Positions 1,379-22,512 of a stretch of DNA of 32,540 nt are shown piece after piece. The notes beneath the pieces were generated by a model. The model was not told the DNA's origin and made no database searches. It saw only the letters and a program-made list of their open reading frames with translations. The translations under genes and the position numbers were made by a program. The stretch spans positions 1 through 32,540 of the forward strand of contig CALVTA010000002.1 in the NCBI GenBank assembly GCA_944359735.1. Reading direction: 5' to 3'. The first letter of the stretch is position 1. Every line of letters starts with the position of its first letter. The DNA comes from an uncultured Bacilli bacterium. GTDB lineage: Bacteria; Bacillota_I; Bacilli_A; RF39; UBA660.

Positions 1379-2221
1379 TTAACTGACTTTTTTATTTTTT
1401 ATTTTATACAGCCTTAGTACCTCTCTAGCATAATCTATTATTGGATTTAAAGATTTATTATTAATAATAAATTTATCTAAAATTACTCCAGGAAATACAA
1501 ATTTCCCATCTTTAATATATGGCTCTTCAACATCAGTAACTATTTTAAGTATTTGCAAATATTCACGTTTAGTAATAGTTTCAGTATATCCTAACATTTT
1601 TGCAATTTCCCTAAATCTATCTGATTCAATTTTTTCTAAATCAAATATTAAATTTTCTTGTTCTGAAACATAAAAAATATTATCAAAGTATTTTTTTCTC
1701 TCACTTTTTAATAAAAATAAACAGTACTCCTCATAAACATGATTTCTAAAATATTCAACTAATGGAGTTGCACTTGATAGAATCCCTTTTTCAAAATCTA
1801 CAATAAATATCTTATCACTATTTATAATAATATTTCTAGGAGCGAAATCTATCCAAAATATTTTGTTTTTTATAAAAAAATCGAGCAATCCATTAATAAT
1901 ATCTCTTCCTTCAAAATGTCTAGTTTCACTCCTAAGATAAAATTCTAAATTTTCCCCTTCGCAATATTCTAAATATAATATATTACTAGCACTATCCCAA
2001 TTAATTATTCTAGGGATTCCCAATATATATTTTTTACCACTTATAGTAATTATTTCATTACTTATTAATTTTGTAATATATTTAATATTATCAACTTCAT
2101 CAAAATTTGTTTTTTTACAAAAAATTAATGAGTTATTTCGATTTATTATCCATGTTTTCTTAGAGTCATAAGATACAATATATTCCCCATTATAACAGCT
2201 ATTTTTATTTATACTGATCAC
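1379..2221 (-). CDS. Atypical protein-kinase-like fold protein (RIO/Kdo/APH-like), function unknown
   Basis: It has a hinge-like LYLEYCEG, a catalytic-loop-like WIDFAPRNIII (D-x4-N) and a DFG-equivalent IVDFEKG. The only usable start is the GTG at 2221, two nt after the upstream TAG, which suggests translational coupling. Confidence 0.55.
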   Translation of the reverse strand: MISINKNSCYNGEYIVSYDSKKTWIINRNNSLIFCKKTNFDEVDNIKYITKLISNEIITISGKKYILGIPRIINWDSASNILYLEYCEGENLEFYLRSETRHFEGRDIINGLLDFFIKNKIFWIDFAPRNIIINSDKIFIVDFEKGILSSATPLVEYFRNHVYEEYCLFLLKSERKKYFDNIFYVSEQENLIFDLEKIESDRFREIAKMLGYTETITKREYLQILKIVTDVEEPYIKDGKFVFPGVILDKFIINNKSLNPIIDYAREVLRLYKIKNKKVS

Positions 2222-2223
2222 CC

Positions 2224-3168
2224 CTATAATTTATAAATTCTTGTAATTTCATCATGCTGTTTCCAATAAAGACATGTAAAATATTTAAAAAATAATAATT
2301 CCTCCTCTATCACTTTATCTAAACCATAAGATTCCAAAAATATTTTCTCACATTCTCTTATTTTCTCTTTATCTTTTAATATCCCAGAAAAAATAATTAT
2401 CATAAACATTGTCCAAAAAATATCATAATGTCTATTACAAAAACCAGCATCACCAAAATCAATCATTTTAATATTTTGATCACTATTTATAAATATATTA
2501 TTAGGATTAAAATCACCATGCACTAAAGTTAAATTATGATATAAAATCTCTTTATTTTTTATTAAATATTTTTTCATTTCATCTATATTATCATAACCCA
2601 TATATTCAACCATATATACCAAACAAACATCATTTTTCATAGCTTCATTAAAACTAACTTCATATTTCTTTTGAAACAATTCTCTTTCCAATTCACTAAA
2701 ATCCTGTTTAATTAAGTTTTCATCATGAAACTGCCGTAATTTTCTTCCAAAGAATGTAGCTATTTCTTGATACGAATTAAAATAATATCCTGCTGTCGGT
2801 AAATTAATTTTTTCGGTAACCATAATTTCATATTCACCAAGATTAAAATATTTAAGAGGTTTAGACGTATAATTTTTTCTATAAAAATATTTATAAGCAA
2901 TATATTCATAATATAAATTACCGCTCTTAGAAAATTTAATAACAAATTCATCTTCGTTATTTTTATCTTTTTTTACAATTAAAACAGAATTACCTGAATA
3001 TCCTGATTTATCATATAAATCTCTACCATTTATCAATGATCGTATGTAATTAAATACTTTTTCACCTTTCAAATTTTTTTCTGCTAATATTTTAAAAAAT
3101 TCTCCATTAACTATAATTTTTTCATTAATTGGTTCAACACCATCTAGATGACTTCCTGTTTTAATCAT
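2224..3168 (-). CDS. Aminoglycoside/choline-kinase-type phosphotransferase (APH family)
   Basis: The Brenner motif LVHGDFNPNNIF and the metal-binding MIDFGDAGFCNRHYDI are both present, with an N-lobe SGNSVLIVKK...FVIKFS. The RBS GGAGG lies 9 nt upstream. The start overlaps the upstream stop in ATGATTAA. Confidence 0.8.
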   Translation of the reverse strand: MIKTGSHLDGVEPINEKIIVNGEFFKILAEKNLKGEKVFNYIRSLINGRDLYDKSGYSGNSVLIVKKDKNNEDEFVIKFSKSGNLYYEYIAYKYFYRKNYTSKPLKYFNLGEYEIMVTEKINLPTAGYYFNSYQEIATFFGRKLRQFHDENLIKQDFSELERELFQKKYEVSFNEAMKNDVCLVYMVEYMGYDNIDEMKKYLIKNKEILYHNLTLVHGDFNPNNIFINSDQNIKMIDFGDAGFCNRHYDIFWTMFMIIIFSGILKDKEKIRECEKIFLESYGLDKVIEEELLFFKYFTCLYWKQHDEITRIYKL

Positions 3169-3859
3169 AATTTATATCCTCCAGAAAATAATCAAGAGTA
3201 CACAATTTGCCTTTATAGTTAATAACAGCTTTACTCAAAATTAAATATGAACCATAATAATGTATATTTTCATTATCACCTATAATATAACAATCATCAT
3301 TCATAACTACTATATCAGAATAATACGAAGCTTCTTCTATGTCTTTCCAATGTTTTTTATTTTTAAAATCACAATGTGGTTCAATATTAATAGTTGTTAT
3401 TCCCAAACCTTTATAAATAGATAATTGTGGAATATTATCTTCTTCATCTTTTGCCAATACAACATTTTCTGCCATATTAATAGCACCAGCTGACATACCT
3501 ACAATAATTTTTTCTTTATTTTTTATTTCCTTCTTTAATTTATATTTATTTATATAATCTATTTGTGAAAGAGTATCCCCACCTAATAAAAACACTATAT
3601 TAGAATCATGAATATTTTTAAGCATCTGTTTATTATTTATTCGTTCATCAATAACATAAACCTGATCAAAAATCAATCCTTTCTTATCAAAAAGATTTAT
3701 CAATTTATTAATAAAATTATCATTTGCAGCATATGTATCAAAAGTTGCAGCAACAAAAGAAACAATTATTTTATCTACACAATTTTTTCTAATAAACTCT
3801 ACTATTTCCTCATCCATCTCCATATTTTTAAAAGAGCCACTTATTAAAACATATTTCAT
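3161..3859 (-). CDS. S51-family serine hydrolase (peptidase E / cyanophycinase-like)
   Basis: Recognisable motifs are VFLLGGDT (GGN/D), the nucleophile elbow GMSAGAINM and a downstream IEPHCD His. I placed the start at MKYVLISG (ATG 3859), 2 nt after the upstream stop, rather than at the ORF-track start 3928, which would overlap the upstream gene by 68 nt. Confidence 0.7.
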   Translation of the reverse strand: MKYVLISGSFKNMEMDEEIVEFIRKNCVDKIIVSFVAATFDTYAANDNFINKLINLFDKKGLIFDQVYVIDERINNKQMLKNIHDSNIVFLLGGDTLSQIDYINKYKLKKEIKNKEKIIVGMSAGAINMAENVVLAKDEEDNIPQLSIYKGLGITTINIEPHCDFKNKKHWKDIEEASYYSDIVVMNDDCYIIGDNENIHYYGSYLILSKAVINYKGKLCTLDYFLEDINYD

Positions 3860-3860
3860 A

Positions 3861-5045
3861 TTATCTTTTTCTCCGTTTCTGTGGATAATCCAATCCGATT
3901 GGATTAGCAACTGACACAATATTTTCAAAATCTAAAAGCATCTGTAACCATCTATCAATACTTAAACCTAAACTAACAGTCGAAGGAAGCCCCCATTCAA
4001 AATAACTCAAAGGATTAATATTGTTTCCTAATAACTTTTGAGCTTCTAATACTTCATCTATATTCTTCATATTATTTTCATCACTATAATAATGCGAAAC
4101 AAAATGTCCATTTACATACCATCTTACTTCTTTCCTTAAACCGTCACATTCATCTTTTTTTATAAAAGGTGAATTACAAGGAAAATTTAATACAATCGTG
4201 TTCACAAATTCCTTTTTCAATTGTTCATATTCAGTTTTACTATCCACAATATCTTTATAATCAATTATCTTCAATTTTTTATCTGAAATAATAATTTTAT
4301 ATTTTTCTGCTAATTCTTTTGATAAGTTATCAATTTGTTTAACAAAATCTGTTAATTTATTTAAATCATTTGAAATAGAAACTAACTCAAGCATCAAAAA
4401 TTCATTAATATGTGAGCTATCTTCACCCATATTCCTAAATACTTTGTCAATAGCATAAGTTGAATGCAATGTAAGTGCTGTCATTTGTTTTAGTTGATTT
4501 TCTAATGTAATTCGCAAATATCTAGGTACATTATTTTTTCTATTTTCAATTACAGCTTCCCTAACATTACTCCCATTAGCATAGTATTCAACGGTATTTA
4601 TCAAACCTGTCGCTTCTAAATAACCTAATGAATTAAGTATTTCCCTTATTCTATTAATCAATTCTCTCTTATATTTCAAAATTTGAATTTGAAAGCCACC
4701 ATTTCTAGCATCTAAATATTCTCTTTGCCTATAATCAATAACAGTTTTATTTATTCCTTTTCCAGACTCAAAATTATTACATGATACAATTTCTAAAATT
4801 TTAGTAATTTTTTTTATATTTCTCCCCTTACTATTAAGTTCATACATATATAAAACATTAATCAAATCACCACATTTAATATTAGCTAATAAATTATTAT
4901 CTATCATAAACTGTGCGTTATTATATTCCTTAGTATAAGCATTAATAAATGAAACATTTTTATGTTTCCTAATTGAAAGTACCCTTATATACACTTTATT
5001 AGCCCCCTCACTACTAAAGTAATTTTTTAAACGAGTATATAACAT
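3861..5045 (-). CDS. Divergent class IIb aminoacyl-tRNA-synthetase paralog (LysRS/EpmA-like), 394 aa
   Basis: The N-terminus is OB-like (VYIRVLSIRKHKNVSFINAY), followed by QREYLDAR (compare RYLDL). A motif-1 region reads RIREILNSLGYLEATGL. YLRITLENQLKQ resembles the LysRS segment YLRIAPELYLKR. Motif 2 is VFRNMGEDSSHINEFLMLE and motif 3 is GLSIDRWLQMLL. No Shine-Dalgarno sequence precedes the ATG at 5045. Confidence 0.7.
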   Translation of the reverse strand: MLYTRLKNYFSSEGANKVYIRVLSIRKHKNVSFINAYTKEYNNAQFMIDNNLLANIKCGDLINVLYMYELNSKGRNIKKITKILEIVSCNNFESGKGINKTVIDYRQREYLDARNGGFQIQILKYKRELINRIREILNSLGYLEATGLINTVEYYANGSNVREAVIENRKNNVPRYLRITLENQLKQMTALTLHSTYAIDKVFRNMGEDSSHINEFLMLELVSISNDLNKLTDFVKQIDNLSKELAEKYKIIISDKKLKIIDYKDIVDSKTEYEQLKKEFVNTIVLNFPCNSPFIKKDECDGLRKEVRWYVNGHFVSHYYSDENNMKNIDEVLEAQKLLGNNINPLSYFEWGLPSTVSLGLSIDRWLQMLLDFENIVSVANPIGLDYPQKRRKR

Positions 5046-5060
5046 TATGCTGTAGAAAAA

Positions 5061-5077
5061 TGTCGAATTTTGTCGAA
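5061..5077 (+). promoter_or_regulatory. Two tandem perfect Spo0A boxes (TGTCGAA-TTT-TGTCGAA)
   Basis: Exact matches to the 0A-box consensus TGNCGAA sit at 5061-5067 and 5071-5077. They are direct repeats with a 10-bp period, which is the arrangement bound by a Spo0A dimer at abrB. They lie 16-32 nt upstream of the aaRS-like ATG. Confidence 0.6.
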
Positions 5078-5142
5078 TTAAAAATAAATATTTAACTTTT
5101 ATTAAATTTATTATTTACACACATAAAAAGAATTAAATATTT

Positions 5143-5301
5143 CTACTTAATTCCTACAAATTTCTTCCTCCATTCTTCTCTATCTTTATAATAATTATTT
5201 TTAAAATCAACATCACCATTAACTAAACTTAAATTAACTTTTCCATGTTTTAACATATATAAATATCTAATCTTCATTAGATAATCTTTTTCACTTTTCA
5301 T
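5143..5301 (-). CDS. Small hypothetical protein (52 aa), absent from the ORF track
   Basis: The RBS GGAGGC (complement of 5306-5311, overlapping the sigE stop) lies 4 nt before the ATG at 5301. The translation is MKSEKDYLMKIRYLYMLKHGKVNLSLVNGDVDFKNNYYKDREEWRKKFVGIK. I recognise no homology. Confidence 0.35.
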   Translation of the reverse strand: MKSEKDYLMKIRYLYMLKHGKVNLSLVNGDVDFKNNYYKDREEWRKKFVGIK

Positions 5302-5310
5302 TATTGCCTC

Positions 5311-6003
5311 CTATGAATACTTAACAATATTTTTTAATCTTCTTATAACTTTTTTTTCAATTCTTGATATATAAGATTGACTAATACCAAGTAAATCTGC
5401 AACCTCCTTTTGAGTCAACTCTTTATGTCCCATCAAACCATATCGCAAAATTATAATATCTCTATCACGAGGATTTAGTCTCATGACTTCATCAAGCATC
5501 AATTTTTTATCAGTTTCCTCCTCTATTCCTTTCGTTACAATATCACCATCAGTGCCCAAAATATCCTCAAGATGTAATTCATTACCTTCTGCATCAAAAC
5601 TCAAAGATGCATCAATGCTAACTTCCGTTTTTGACTTTTTAATCTTTCTTAAATACATCAAGATCTCATTATCAATACACCTTGAAGCATAAGTTGCAAG
5701 TTTTATATTTTTGTCTTTTTTAAAAGTATTTATACCCTTAATAAGACCAATCGTACCTATACTAACTAAATCTTCCAAATCAACCTTTGTATTCTCATAC
5801 TTTTTAGCAAGAAATACAACCAGCCTTAAATTATGTTCTATTAAAACATCTCTTGCATGTAAATCACCATCAAGAGCCATAACAAGATAAGCTTCCTCTT
5901 CCTCTTTTGATAAAGGCTCTGGTAAAATATCACTACTTCCTACATAAAATATTTCATAAGATTTATCAAGCAAAAACGCAACTAAATAAAGTAAACTAAT
6001 CAT
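5311..6003 (-). CDS. sigE: Sporulation sigma factor sigma-E (pro-sigma-E)
   Basis: The sequence is near-collinear with B. subtilis SigE: FYVGSSDILPEPLSKEEE, HNLRLVVFLAKKYENT, LVSIGTIGLIKGINTF, ATYASRCIDNEILMYLRK, GISQSYISRIEKK. There is a hydrophobic pro-sequence. The gene directly follows spoIIGA, with the RBS GAGGAGG lying inside the spoIIGA 3' end. Confidence 0.93.
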   Translation of the reverse strand: MISLLYLVAFLLDKSYEIFYVGSSDILPEPLSKEEEEAYLVMALDGDLHARDVLIEHNLRLVVFLAKKYENTKVDLEDLVSIGTIGLIKGINTFKKDKNIKLATYASRCIDNEILMYLRKIKKSKTEVSIDASLSFDAEGNELHLEDILGTDGDIVTKGIEEETDKKLMLDEVMRLNPRDRDIIILRYGLMGHKELTQKEVADLLGISQSYISRIEKKVIRRLKNIVKYS

Positions 6004-6789
6004 TTAAAGTTCCTCCTCTATAATATTAGGTAAAATACAACTAGCTCCTTTTATTTTTAATTCTTTAGGACTGACTCCAAGCAGATATTTATTATTAAGT
6101 AAATTCCCGTCTATCTTAATTTCCTCTATTTCCATACATCTAAGCAACCCTCTATTACTAACTGTCTTAAATGGTACTAATATTGCCTCTTCTAAATTAA
6201 TTTTCACTTCTTTAGGATCAATAATAATAATTGACCTTTTTTTATAAGGATCCTTAATATTATTACCAGTATCTAAAAATCCTAAAGTATTAACTATACC
6301 CTTCTTATATTTAATTGTAACTTTGTGCAACAATTCAATTTTCTTTTTCTCTTTCATCATCATTTTATGATATAAATAGAAAATAATAGGACTACTAATT
6401 ATAATTATAATTAAATTTAAGCTAGTACCATCATGAATAAAAATAAAACCTTTCTGCTTATAACTAAACTGATTATTAAAAAAATAAATAAGGCCACCCA
6501 AAATAATACTATTTCCATATAAACTTTTAATAAGAGTGAAAAATAATTGTCTTGATTTAACTTTAAAGCCTACCAAGATCATAACAACACTTATTAGAAA
6601 TTTAAAAAGAAATAAAGAAAAATTATTAAGAGGTAGAAACAAAAGAAATGTACTTAAACTTCCTAAAAATGCTGATATAATTAATTTTCGTTTTTTAGAA
6701 AAGACTTTACATTCTATACTAACTGTCATTAAAAGGAGTAAATCAAACATAAAATTAATAAAGAATATTAAATCTAAATACACTTTCAT
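6004..6789 (-). CDS. spoIIGA: Sigma-E processing aspartic peptidase SpoIIGA
   Basis: The N-terminus MKVYLDLIFFINFMFDLLLL matches B. subtilis MKIYLDVIWLLNF. The protein has five TM-like segments and the catalytic FLDTGN motif. I placed the start at ATG 6789 rather than the upstream GTG 6807. Confidence 0.9.
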   Translation of the reverse strand: MKVYLDLIFFINFMFDLLLLMTVSIECKVFSKKRKLIISAFLGSLSTFLLFLPLNNFSLFLFKFLISVVMILVGFKVKSRQLFFTLIKSLYGNSIILGGLIYFFNNQFSYKQKGFIFIHDGTSLNLIIIIISSPIIFYLYHKMMMKEKKKIELLHKVTIKYKKGIVNTLGFLDTGNNIKDPYKKRSIIIIDPKEVKINLEEAILVPFKTVSNRGLLRCMEIEEIKIDGNLLNNKYLLGVSPKELKIKGASCILPNIIEEEL

Positions 6790-6812
6790 TTCTACCACCA
6801 CTATCACTATAC

Positions 6813-6843
6813 AAAAAAAGAAACGAATTATTTGTCGTTTCTT
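6813..6843 (-). terminator. Rho-independent terminator after comEC
   Basis: The minus strand reads AAGAAACG-ACAAATAATT-CGTTTCTT followed by a T7 run. It is preceded by a second 9-bp hairpin, ATCTATTAA/TTAATAGAT, at 6848-6871. Confidence 0.6.
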
Positions 6844-6877: not shown

Positions 6878-8965
6878 TTAAGAACTATACTTTTCAATTT
6901 TATTATTAGTAAAATCAAACATAACCATTCCATTCATTCTAATATCATAAATAATCGTACCATTAGTATGTAATCTCTCTACTATTTCATCATGAGGATG
7001 ATTAAACTTATTATTAACTCCTGCTGAAATTAAAGCATAAGTAGGATTTACTTGTTTAATAAACTCTTCACTACTACTAGTCCTAGAGCCATGATGTCCA
7101 ACTTTTAATATTGTAACATTACTAATATCATAATTATTTAAAATATATTTTTCACTTCTAATACTAGCATCTCCCATAAACAATATTTTTCTATCATAAA
7201 TAGTACTATAAATGACAAGACTACTATCATTTTCATCATCGTATGTGTTAGAAATAATTAAAAAATTAAAATTACCCAAACTAAAACTATCGCCCTCTTT
7301 TAACTTATAATGGATAGAAGAATTATTCCAAATTTTTTTCTCTAAGTCATTTAATTGATTGTTATTAAAAAAAACTGTTTCAACATCTATCTCATCCATA
7401 ATAGTTAAAGCTTCTCCTGCATGGTCATAATCACCATGAGTTAAAACCAGATAATCAAGTTTAGTTATTCCTAACTGATAAAGAAAATTAACTATATACT
7501 CCCCCTTCTTTGTTTTTTCGTACACTTGCCATTCTTCCTTATAATACTCCATAACCCCTCCAGTATCTATCAGCATAGATCTATTATTAGATACCAGCAA
7601 AAAACAATCACCTTGTCCTACATCTATCATATAAAGAGCATCTTTAGAAAATACCAAAGGAAAAACATAATGCAAAATAATTCCTATAAAAAGGAAATAA
7701 AGAAAAATATAACTTTTCTTCTTAAAAAATAAATAGGCAAATATCAAAAGATAATATAAGAAATAAAAACAAATATTTATTCTTCTCAAGACAATAAAAC
7801 CAAATTTAAATTCAGAAAAAAAATTAACACTAACTTCAAACATATTTATAAAAAATTCCAAAACAAATGATAAATGCGGAATAAAGAAAACAATCATCGA
7901 TAATGGAAACATTATAATATTAATAAAAGGTACATAAAATAAATTGTATATTATACTAAGAGGATTAATATAAGAAAAATGATATAAAGAAATGGGTAAA
8001 CTAACCAAGAAGCTTACCCAAGATACTTTTAATAATTCTCGTATTTTCCCTATTTTCTTTTTATTATCCATATATAATATTAAAGTACAACTAATAACTG
8101 TAGAATACTGAAACCCAATATCATAAATATAATATGGATTCAAGAAAAATAAAATACTAAGAGAAAATAATATTAGAAAGAAAGGTTTTATTTGTAAATT
8201 GAGGATCTTATTTAAAGAAAAAACTATACTAAATACAATCGCTCTATCAATAGTAGCACAAGAATCAATAAAAAAATAATAGACAAATATAGCCAAATAA
8301 ATTAAAAGGAGTTTGCGTAAACTTACATTTTTTTTAAATCTACTGAATATCGCTTGTAATATTACAAACAAAAAACTTATTTGTGTACCAGAAAGAGCAA
8401 AGAGATGAGAAATACCTAACTTTTGAAATTTTTCTTCTAACTCTACATCAAAATTAGTATCATTTCCTAAAAAGAAAACATTTACATAATTACTAACTTT
8501 ATCGTTAGTAATACTATTTCTAAGGATAGTTTTCACCTCTTTTAAAATATTACTATTTTTATTTTCTATGGAAAATTCAGATGTTTTCAAAAGGTAAAAT
8601 ACTCCTTTACGTTTTAAATAGGCTGGGTAGGAAAAACTATAAAAATTTTTACTAGAAAGAGGTTTGACTAATTCACCCTCTAATTTAAGTACATCACCTA
8701 ATGAAAGATTCTTCTTTACTTTTTCTAAGGTATCCTCAGTATCAAAATAATATGTGGCAATAAGGTTTTCTTTTGCTTTAATCAACATTGTCATTTTATT
8801 ACCCTCATACTCCAAACTAACAACTTCTCCAATAAAATCTTTTTCACTCCCTCCATATTTAGAAGTATGATCAATATTTATACAAATAAATAGGTAAAAA
8901 ATGCTTATAACAAATAATAAAATATACAAATAATTAAGTAGTAATATTTTCCTTAATTTGATCAA
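6878..8965 (-). CDS. comEC: DNA internalization competence protein ComEC/Rec2
   Basis: It has an N-terminal OB/DUF4131-like region, a polytopic membrane core and a C-terminal metallo-beta-lactamase domain (DVGQGDCFLL, LTHGDYDHAG, GHHGS). Confidence 0.9.
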   Translation of the reverse strand: MIKLRKILLLNYLYILLFVISIFYLFICINIDHTSKYGGSEKDFIGEVVSLEYEGNKMTMLIKAKENLIATYYFDTEDTLEKVKKNLSLGDVLKLEGELVKPLSSKNFYSFSYPAYLKRKGVFYLLKTSEFSIENKNSNILKEVKTILRNSITNDKVSNYVNVFFLGNDTNFDVELEEKFQKLGISHLFALSGTQISFLFVILQAIFSRFKKNVSLRKLLLIYLAIFVYYFFIDSCATIDRAIVFSIVFSLNKILNLQIKPFFLILFSLSILFFLNPYYIYDIGFQYSTVISCTLILYMDNKKKIGKIRELLKVSWVSFLVSLPISLYHFSYINPLSIIYNLFYVPFINIIMFPLSMIVFFIPHLSFVLEFFINMFEVSVNFFSEFKFGFIVLRRINICFYFLYYLLIFAYLFFKKKSYIFLYFLFIGIILHYVFPLVFSKDALYMIDVGQGDCFLLVSNNRSMLIDTGGVMEYYKEEWQVYEKTKKGEYIVNFLYQLGITKLDYLVLTHGDYDHAGEALTIMDEIDVETVFFNNNQLNDLEKKIWNNSSIHYKLKEGDSFSLGNFNFLIISNTYDDENDSSLVIYSTIYDRKILFMGDASIRSEKYILNNYDISNVTILKVGHHGSRTSSSEEFIKQVNPTYALISAGVNNKFNHPHDEIVERLHTNGTIIYDIRMNGMVMFDFTNNKIEKYSS

Positions 8966-17673: not shown

Positions 17674-17897
17674 AAAAAATAACTATAACTTAAGGGAGTC
17701 TACAATGAGTATACTCGGTACCACCTTAATTTATAGTTATTTAACTATTCTCATTATCTTAACGCGAAAACAACGCCTATAATTTTATTATAGGAACTCC
17801 TAAGATGAATTCATAAACTATTCTTATCTATTTCCACCTACCATAGACTCTCTTTAAAGAAATCATTTACTACTACTTCTTAATCACAGCCATTTCA
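17674..17897 (-). promoter_or_regulatory. T-box leader (tRNA-Phe specifier UUC) with intrinsic terminator
   Basis: The minus strand carries an AGAGA bay and a GGUGGAAA distal-loop-like element. The specifier-loop context is GAA-UUC-A (codon at 17809-17807). The conserved T-box AAUUAAGGUGGUACCGAG is the complement of 17714-17731. A terminator follows (AAUAACUAUAAAUUAAGG ... CCCUUAAGUUAUAGUUAU plus U6 at 17679-17674), and its 5' arm overlaps the T-box. Confidence 0.85.
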
Positions 17898-21775: not shown

Positions 21776-22486
21776 TTAGCTAAAGTCTATGTCATTATAC
21801 TTATTATGTTTAATAAACTCTCTTAATATTTTAGTCAAAGCTCTTTTTTCAATACGAGAAACATAACTTCTAGAAATATTAAGTTTATCCGCTATCATTT
21901 TCTGAGTCCATTCATCATTACCATCTAACCCATATCTTTTAACTATTATTTCTTTTTCTCTTTTATTTAAAACCTTAATATAATCATTAAGTAATTTAAC
22001 ATTATCTTTCAAATTAATCTCTTCTATAAAATCAGGACGCGGAGCTTTAATAACATCTAATATTGATATTTCATTTCCTTCTTTATCAAAACCTACTGGT
22101 TCATTTAAAGATATATTTTTATTATTCTTATTATTAGCACGAAAATACATTAAAATTTCATTTTGAATACATTTAGCACAATATGTAGTAAGACGATTCC
22201 CCTTATTAGGAACAAAAGTATCAACTCCTTTAATAAGGCCAATTGTCCCAACACTAATAAGATCATCTTGATCGATATTTTTATAATCAAATTTCTTAAC
22301 AATATGAGCGACTAATCTAAGATTATGTTCTATTAATTTATTACGACTATTAACATCTCCTTTCCCCATTTTATTAATACATTCTTCTTCCTCTTCTTTT
22401 GATAGTGGTTCTTTAAAGACTTGATTAGAATAACTTGCTGTAAAAGTAAAGAAGCCTCTTAGACTATCAAATAAATTAAACAACAT
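21776..22486 (-). CDS. sigK: Sporulation sigma factor sigma-K (pro-sigma-K), uninterrupted
   Basis: The sequence is collinear with B. subtilis SigK: F(K/P)EPLSKEEE, GD..SRNKLIEHNLRLVAHIVKKF, LISVGTIGLIKG, TYCAKCIQNEILMYFR, FDKEGNEISILDV, ISRSYVSRIEKRAL. I placed the start at MLFNLF (ATG 22486), with the RBS AGGTGA 5 nt upstream. Confidence 0.9.
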   Translation of the reverse strand: MLFNLFDSLRGFFTFTASYSNQVFKEPLSKEEEEECINKMGKGDVNSRNKLIEHNLRLVAHIVKKFDYKNIDQDDLISVGTIGLIKGVDTFVPNKGNRLTTYCAKCIQNEILMYFRANNKNNKNISLNEPVGFDKEGNEISILDVIKAPRPDFIEEINLKDNVKLLNDYIKVLNKREKEIIVKRYGLDGNDEWTQKMIADKLNISRSYVSRIEKRALTKILREFIKHNKYNDIDFS

Positions 22487-22512
22487 TTTTATCACCTAAT
22501 AAATAATATGTC

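Follow-up and report, generated by a model that had tools for sequence, protein, structure and literature searches.

The site under study lies among genes that are all read from the minus strand, comprising comEC (6878-8965), spoIIGA, a sigma factor gene, a 52-aa ORF, a four-gene cassette and the genes of a Fur/PerR-like protein and a rubrerythrin, within a window (the entire stretch of DNA analyzed) of 32.5 kb. The sigma factor gene that follows spoIIGA (5311-6003) was best assigned as sigE, with a match below the NCBIfam cut-off, and its orthologue in Candidatus Onthousia faecipullorum, a close relative assigned to Bacilli incertae sedis, carries the name SigK in its public entry; the window's actual SigK-like gene is found at 21776-22495 and appears uninterrupted. 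Recognizing that spoIIGA, sigE and sigK are all present in the window, we regard the organism as a spore-former, and from the same three genes we infer that it also possesses spo0A, which is not among the genes of the window.

The cassette consists of a gene for a class II aaRS-like protein (LysRS/EpmA-like; 3861-4994, 377 aa, Pfam tRNA-synt_2), followed by genes for a Peptidase_S51 (3161-3859), an APH-type kinase (2224-3168) and a kinase-like protein (1379-2221), and in all related loci these four genes (1379 to 4994) are found together. The aaRS-like protein matches LysRS best, in NCBIfam as well as among solved structures. Across the family, motif 2 of the class II fold reads FRNMGED (about residues 187-192 of the 377-aa form) where LysRS has FRNEG, while motif 3 (GLSIDR) is kept; this change in motif 2 hints at an altered amino-acid substrate or an acceptor other than tRNA. 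In L019 and L020 a frameshift within an A7 run (TATAAAAAAAGTTAA) divides the aaRS-like gene at the same position (3088-3099 in L019) into 117 + 255 aa, with the full protein regained by a -1 shift or one extra A, and the split is seen in two independent assemblies. Few homologues of the cassette were found in scans of genome and metagenome collections, and it is present, in varied contexts, in many uncultured low-GC Bacilli. Beyond the cassette, the fur/perR-like gene (923-1300) is preceded by a canonical promoter (TTGACT, 17 nt, TATAAT), and between this promoter and the gene lies a perfect palindromic Fur/PerR-type box, TGATAATAATTATCA, at 1314-1328, which is conserved in L022.

No sigG gene follows sigE, unlike the arrangement in Bacillus and Clostridium; its place is taken by a conserved ORF of 51-52 residues (5143-5301 in the window, 2508-2663 in L019 and 4001-4159 in L022) which has a strong Shine-Dalgarno sequence, homologues found in this clade alone, and a stop codon positioned within a terminator-like hairpin. 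This hairpin (5123-5155, minus strand) comprises a 12-bp stem, which accounts for inverted repeat I9, with a dG of -9.1 and a T-run thereafter; the same fold is found in the window, L019, L021 and L022, with a G-U wobble at differing positions of the stem. The spoIIGA-sigE unit thus very probably terminates at the hairpin, and given a conserved terminator upstream, the cassette would need a promoter of its own.

Sequences of relatives part ways directly after the conserved hairpin, and the region just past the sigE-operon terminator is an insertion hotspot (about 5123 in the window, 4354-4470 in L026, 4354-4469 in L027 and 4160-4280 in L022) that holds, depending on the relative, the aaRS cassette, an IS605-type TnpB, an aldolase_II-like gene, or no insert at all. 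In the many relatives that lack the cassette and have SigE at least 90% identical, the small ORF is followed directly by the fur-like gene in L022-L025, L035, L036-L041, L044 and L045, by an aldolase-like gene in L027, L032, L034 and L042, and by an IS605-type TnpB in L026, L028-L031 and L033. Between the hairpin and the site under study, the window has an AT-rich insertion and duplication of about 45 nt (5083-5125, minus strand), absent from L019 and L021, which duplicates AAATATTTA..TTTTTA, a segment with a core, AAATATTT, that is its own reverse complement. The first-pass annotation had described an AT-only inverted repeat in this region; its first arm (5142-5133) is as described, but the second lies one base off, at 5095-5086, and the repeat is no independent element, because the first arm makes up the 3' side of the terminator hairpin while the second is the window-specific duplicate.

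The window contains exactly two copies of the heptamer TGTCGAA, at 5061-5067 and 5071-5077 of the plus strand with TTT in between, as first reported, and at 16-32 nt from the ATG at 5045, a distance that was also given correctly. Read along the gene strand, the pair is TTCGACAaaaTTCGACA and the whole site is TTCGACAaaaTTCGACAtttTTCTACAgcataATG. A third copy, TGTAGAA at 5051-5057, which was overlooked in the first reading, has one mismatch and keeps the same 10-bp register, and Tandem Repeats Finder independently called a period-10 array at 5061-5079. We have numbered the boxes along the gene strand: box 1 (5071-5077) and box 2 (5061-5067) both read TTCGACA, a perfect 0A-box core, while box 3 (5051-5057) reads TTCTACA and is degenerate at the contacted base C4. 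The argument that such CG-containing heptamers are improbable by chance needs to be divided: a single TGTCGAA is unremarkable, with about 1 expected per window and at least two in 26 of 100 shuffles, while the exact 7+3+7 pair has a first-order Markov expectation of 1.3e-5 per window or 8e-4 per 2 Mb. The tandem 0A boxes are clearly real and non-random.

The position of the boxes has to be reconsidered in view of the start codon of the aaRS-like gene. All 19 aligned homologues (34-69% identity) start with M-Y-I-R-V-L-S-I-R-K-H-K, which corresponds to the GTG at 4994-4992, in frame and 17 codons (51 nt) downstream of ATG 5045, and the 17 extra residues from this ATG have a counterpart in none of the 19. 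The GTG is preceded at 8 nt by a Shine-Dalgarno sequence, GAGGGGG (5002-5008), with equivalents at the same place in L019 (GGGGGA) and L021 (GAGGGA), and the 377-aa form has already been reported by some gene callers. Accordingly, the earlier statement that the gene has no Shine-Dalgarno sequence does not hold, since the apparent absence stems from ATG 5045 having been miscalled as the start; of the suggestion that initiation here is non-canonical or misassigned, the latter part proved right, whereas leaderless or non-Shine-Dalgarno initiation does not fit a GTG with GAGGGGG upstream. With the start at GTG 4994, the boxes are at -83 to -57, leaving space for a promoter downstream of them, and ATG 5045 comes to sit between box 3 and the -10 element, inside the predicted promoter.

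The synteny of sigE, small ORF and cassette seen in the window is shared by only two other species, represented by L019/L020 and L021; their aaRS-like proteins and that of the window are 69-74% identical, and three tandem boxes are found in each (ATCGACAaaaAACGACAataTTCGACA in L019 and TACGACAataTTCGACAataTTCGACA in L021). Box 1 corresponds to ATCGACA in L019 and TACGACA in L021, box 2 to AACGACA and TTCGACA, respectively, and box 3 to a perfect TTCGACA in both. Counted in an ungapped three-way register of the window, L019 and L021, 14 of 15 positions are identical in the CGACA cores of the three boxes, compared with 8/25 in the 25 nt upstream, 5/12 in the box edges and spacers, 3/11 in the 11 nt after box 3, and 9/30 in the 30 nt beyond the -10-like hexamer that follows. 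A gapped MAFFT alignment placed indels between the boxes and the leader, but the ungapped register fits better. G2, C4 and G5 (TGTCG) are kept in eight of the nine boxes, the exception being box 3 of the window (C4 to A), apart from which variation between species is confined to positions 6-7. Elsewhere in about 247 kb of loci, including cassette-free relatives and cassettes in other contexts, no tandem boxes were found, and they are absent from all of the above relatives in which SigE is at least 90% identical and the cassette is lacking. The boxes thus travel with the sigE-linked version of the cassette as its predicted promoter region.

The hexamer in question is TATACT in the window (5034-5039, minus strand), TATTCT and TATGCT in the two other species; five of its six positions are identical against about 30% in the flanks, and it qualifies as a predicted sigma-A -10 element with a transcription start near 5028-5026. 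In all three species, without gaps, TATnCT begins 11 nt after box 3 and exactly 21 nt after the CGACA end of box 2. The sole -35-like hexamer, TCGACA within box 2, is therefore 21 nt from TATACT rather than at the usual spacing of 17 nt, and against the canonical promoter geometry found elsewhere in this genome, as exemplified by the fur-like gene, promoters with 21 nt stand out. Relative to the predicted start, box 1 would occupy about -50 to -44, box 2 about -40 to -34, and box 3, in the promoter spacer, about -30 to -24. This layout of TCGACA, 21 nt and TATnCT, which would be of the spoIIG type, is kept in the three species; alternative -10 hexamers (TATAAA/TAAAAA, 19-21 nt after box 3) are also present, -10-like hexamers being common in a very AT-rich genome. 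The earlier claim that no -35/-10 pair fits downstream of the boxes falls once the start is shifted by 51 nt. Promoters for the sporulation sigma factors E, K, F, G and H were checked by eye, and none matched in a conserved register. For sigma-E/K (-10 CATAnnnTA), the candidate CATAATGTT of the window is out of register in L019 and L021 and the spacings to an AC or ATA -35 are wrong (12-15 nt); for sigma-F/G (GnATA with CATnnTA or GGnnAnAnT), GCATA/GAATA is present with no -10 at constant spacing; and for sigma-H, GAAT is found in L019 and L021 only, with no AGGA -35.

The spoIIGA gene of the same window provides an internal control. Its predicted promoter (6806-6839, minus strand) comprises AACGACA (6839-6833), 21 nt and TATAGT (6811-6806), and in all relatives read, the upstream region contains AAGAAACGACAAAT, TATA[G/C]T at 21 nt after CGACA, GGTGG and the ATG. 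Among these 17 relatives (23 contigs if those nearly identical to the window or L019 are included), AACGACA is invariant in 17 of 17, the conserved stretch extends just 3 nt beyond the box on its upstream side, and the box is kept whatever the upstream gene (comEC, Peptidase_S66, rluD-like or a HAD hydrolase), be it 70 or 640 nt away. An apparent hairpin at this place was considered as a comEC terminator and rejected, the distance to spoIIGA being fixed despite another upstream gene or a gap of 560-640 nt; moreover, changes in the 3' half of the hairpin (TTCGTTTC, CTTGTTTC, CTCGCTTC) are not matched by compensating ones in the 5' arm, the box, which stays constant, a pattern that favors a protein site over a structural element. 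The gene is listed as 6004-6807, with a GTG at 6807 that lies inside the predicted -10 TATAGT, but the start shared among relatives is ATG 6789, which follows GGTGG and gives a protein of 261 aa, the form called in L004; if TATAGT is the -10, spoIIGA would have a short 5' untranslated region of about 10 nt. The practical correction from this analysis is therefore two start codons, 4994 for the aaRS-like gene and 6789 for spoIIGA. The spoIIGA-sigE operon is activated by Spo0A and transcribed by sigma-A in Bacillus and C. difficile, and in the latter Spo0A binds upstream of spoIIGA, where a sigma-A promoter has been mapped (PMC3789822; PMC3485338). The predicted cassette promoter copies the geometry of the spoIIGA promoter of its own clade.

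Several lines of evidence bear on the identity of the protein that would bind the array. The core TGTCGAA, with contacts at G2, C4 and G5, is recognized by Spo0A of Bacillus and C. difficile, and single mutations of G2, C4 or G5 reduce the affinity of C. difficile Spo0A about 10-fold (PMC3485338). Two exact copies of TGTCGAA and one TGTAGAA are found here against the consensus TGNCGAA/TGTCGAA (PMC3485338, PMC2731898), arranged head to tail with 3-bp spacing (10-bp period) as would suit a Spo0A~P dimer, and a box of this kind, AACGACA, is also present in the same genome at spoIIGA, a canonical target of Spo0A. Taken together, the triplet in three species, the preservation of contact bases and the matching core at spoIIGA back the original proposal that the heptamers are 0A boxes, an assignment that is well supported by comparison of the sequences, and we consider it fairly probable that they are bound by Spo0A.

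With respect to the mode of action, we lean with moderate confidence toward the array overlying a sigma-A promoter of the spoIIG type that depends on Spo0A~P, with activation rather than abrB-like repression; binding by Spo0A, an activating effect and the position of the transcription start are what we infer from the arrangement. In such a scheme, transcription of spoIIGA, sigE and the small ORF would end at the hairpin (5155-5123), and RNA polymerase alone would be weak at the cassette promoter, with a -35-like TCGACA at 21 nt from the -10 and not 17. Upon phosphorylation of Spo0A at the onset of starvation or sporulation, Spo0A~P dimers would fill boxes 1 and 2, around -50 and -40, and the bound dimers would aid sigma-A polymerase at the -10 element, as at the spoIIG promoter of Bacillus subtilis. 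The mRNA would then start near 5027 with a leader of about 33 nt, leaving ATG 5045 untranscribed, and translation would proceed from GTG 4994 via the GAGGGGG Shine-Dalgarno sequence. Box 3 may add cooperativity, or may repress at high Spo0A~P. Regarding the leader itself, no T-box or other aaRS leader RNA was matched at the cassette, the only Rfam match being the T-box (17689-17896; RF00230, 108.9 bits) upstream of pheS-pheT; no stable or consistent leader fold was seen, z-scores being close to 0 for both the window and L021; and pairing of the -10 region with the start codon region (inverted repeat I6) was rejected, there being no covariation support.

An opposite effect of Spo0A~P, namely repression as at abrB, was advanced in the first-pass annotation, which took the boxes to lie at or after the promoter. 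If the promoter were upstream of box 1, the boxes would fall at about +5 to +35 and Spo0A~P would block elongation or promoter clearance. L019 has a perfect TATAAT ending inside box 1, and the window keeps the duplicated AAATATTTA..TTTTTA directly upstream of box 1 despite the 45-nt insertion; moreover, the head-to-tail 7+3 arrangement is, as that annotation stated, the geometry at abrB, and Spo0A footprints have been described on box pairs with a 3-bp gap (PMC2731898). However, comparison of the window, L019 and L021 revealed no conserved promoter upstream of box 1, the candidate -10 being TATAAT in L019, TAGATA/TTAGAT in L021 and TTTAAT in the window, and the -35 of such a promoter would fall in the terminator hairpin. 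By contrast, the downstream TATnCT with its 21-nt spacing is conserved and matches the spoIIGA promoter. As the positional argument for repression was built on ATG 5045 rather than on the true start, and the boxes cover the -35 region and the spacer belonging to a conserved -10-like hexamer, we deem an abrB-like effect unlikely.

Another possibility, to which we likewise assign a low likelihood, is that the direct repeats are bound by a different protein, either an OmpR/PhoB-type response regulator, for which CGACA half-sites would recur with a 10-bp period, or SpoIIID, with its GACA core. The invariant part of the site is limited to CGACA, direct repeats of 10-11 bp are generic for winged-helix response regulators, and the spo0A gene itself does not lie within the window. 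Nevertheless, two of the boxes match the full 7-bp core of Spo0A, beyond CGACA, and the same core recurs at spoIIGA, a known Spo0A target. At PhoP and WalR sites the period is 11 bp and the hexamers are of another sequence, while SpoIIID prefers RRACA, a preference at odds with the C that is invariant in eight of nine boxes.

That the array is no regulator site at all, having arisen as a 10-bp duplication by slippage, as a leftover of cassette insertion or as redundant -35-like hexamers, is very improbable: Tandem Repeats Finder does report a simple period-10 array, TCGACA equals TTGACA at five of six positions and the locus is an insertion hotspot, but the heptamers are identical even though the spacers between them differ (AAA vs. 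TTT), three diverged species retain the cores, inspection found no -10 at 16-18 nt from any box of the window, and neither a matching repeat at the distal end of the cassette nor dispersed copies in the window or the 45 loci were found, the last of these being a check that the first-pass annotation had itself proposed as able to refute its claim.

The genomic context of the cassette differs among lineages. The four-gene cassette begins 10-12 nt after relA/spoT (RSH) in L009, L011, L015 (2053-4646) and L017 (2037-4637), an arrangement which suggests that it is co-transcribed with this stringent-response enzyme in other lineages. It is found after serS fragments in L016 and divergent from proS in L010 and L018, and lies behind ordinary promoters (TTGAC(A/T), 17 nt, -10) in L007, L012 and L016; within 400 nt upstream of the cassettes in these other contexts, no 0A-type box was found. 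We speculate, as a tentative and rather doubtful proposition, that the cassette is an uncharacterized starvation-response module whose control has been rewired between lineages, by co-transcription with relA/spoT, by a plain sigma-A promoter, or, in this spore-forming clade, by placement behind sigE with a three-box Spo0A switch in which boxes 1 and 2 may activate while box 3 in the spacer may turn the promoter off when Spo0A~P is high.

If the activation model holds, the site, which is carried by only three independent species, would represent a well-footprinted Spo0A target in uncultured, very AT-rich gut Bacilli related to Candidatus Onthousia, and both the 0A-box code and the spoIIG-type promoter layout would reach this lineage. 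Its main interest is the tie between an uncharacterized aaRS-like cassette and the Spo0A-controlled transition state: the cassette would be linked to stationary phase or sporulation entry, in agreement with the relA linkage elsewhere, thereby giving a concrete condition in which to seek its function.

Among the targets of C. difficile Spo0A, a consensus box lies less than 100 bp from the start codon in spo0A (-75), sigH (-78), lplA and ssuA, and genes with no obvious role in sporulation are included (PMC3485338). The array described here has the same 7-bp core at a similar distance from the start codon (-83 to -57), but those targets are mostly single boxes validated by EMSA, in contrast to a three-box array known from comparative sequence alone. 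With the abrB operator of B. subtilis, the array shares a perfect TGTCGAA core in a head-to-tail pair with a 3-bp spacer; at abrB, however, the boxes are downstream of the transcription start, whereas here a conserved -10-like hexamer lies downstream of the boxes, which would place them in an activator position. Compared with the spoIIG promoter of B. subtilis, the site precedes a cassette not of the sporulation type (an aaRS-like ligase, an S51 peptidase and two kinases) and comprises three contiguous boxes, one of them in the spacer and possibly negative-acting, with no distal upstream site seen. The likeness to spoIIG resides in the 0A-type boxes over the predicted -35 region, about 10 bp apart and near -40 and -50, and in a -35-like hexamer too distant from the predicted -10, at 21 nt here and reportedly 22 bp at spoIIG, where 0A boxes are likewise said to overlap it.
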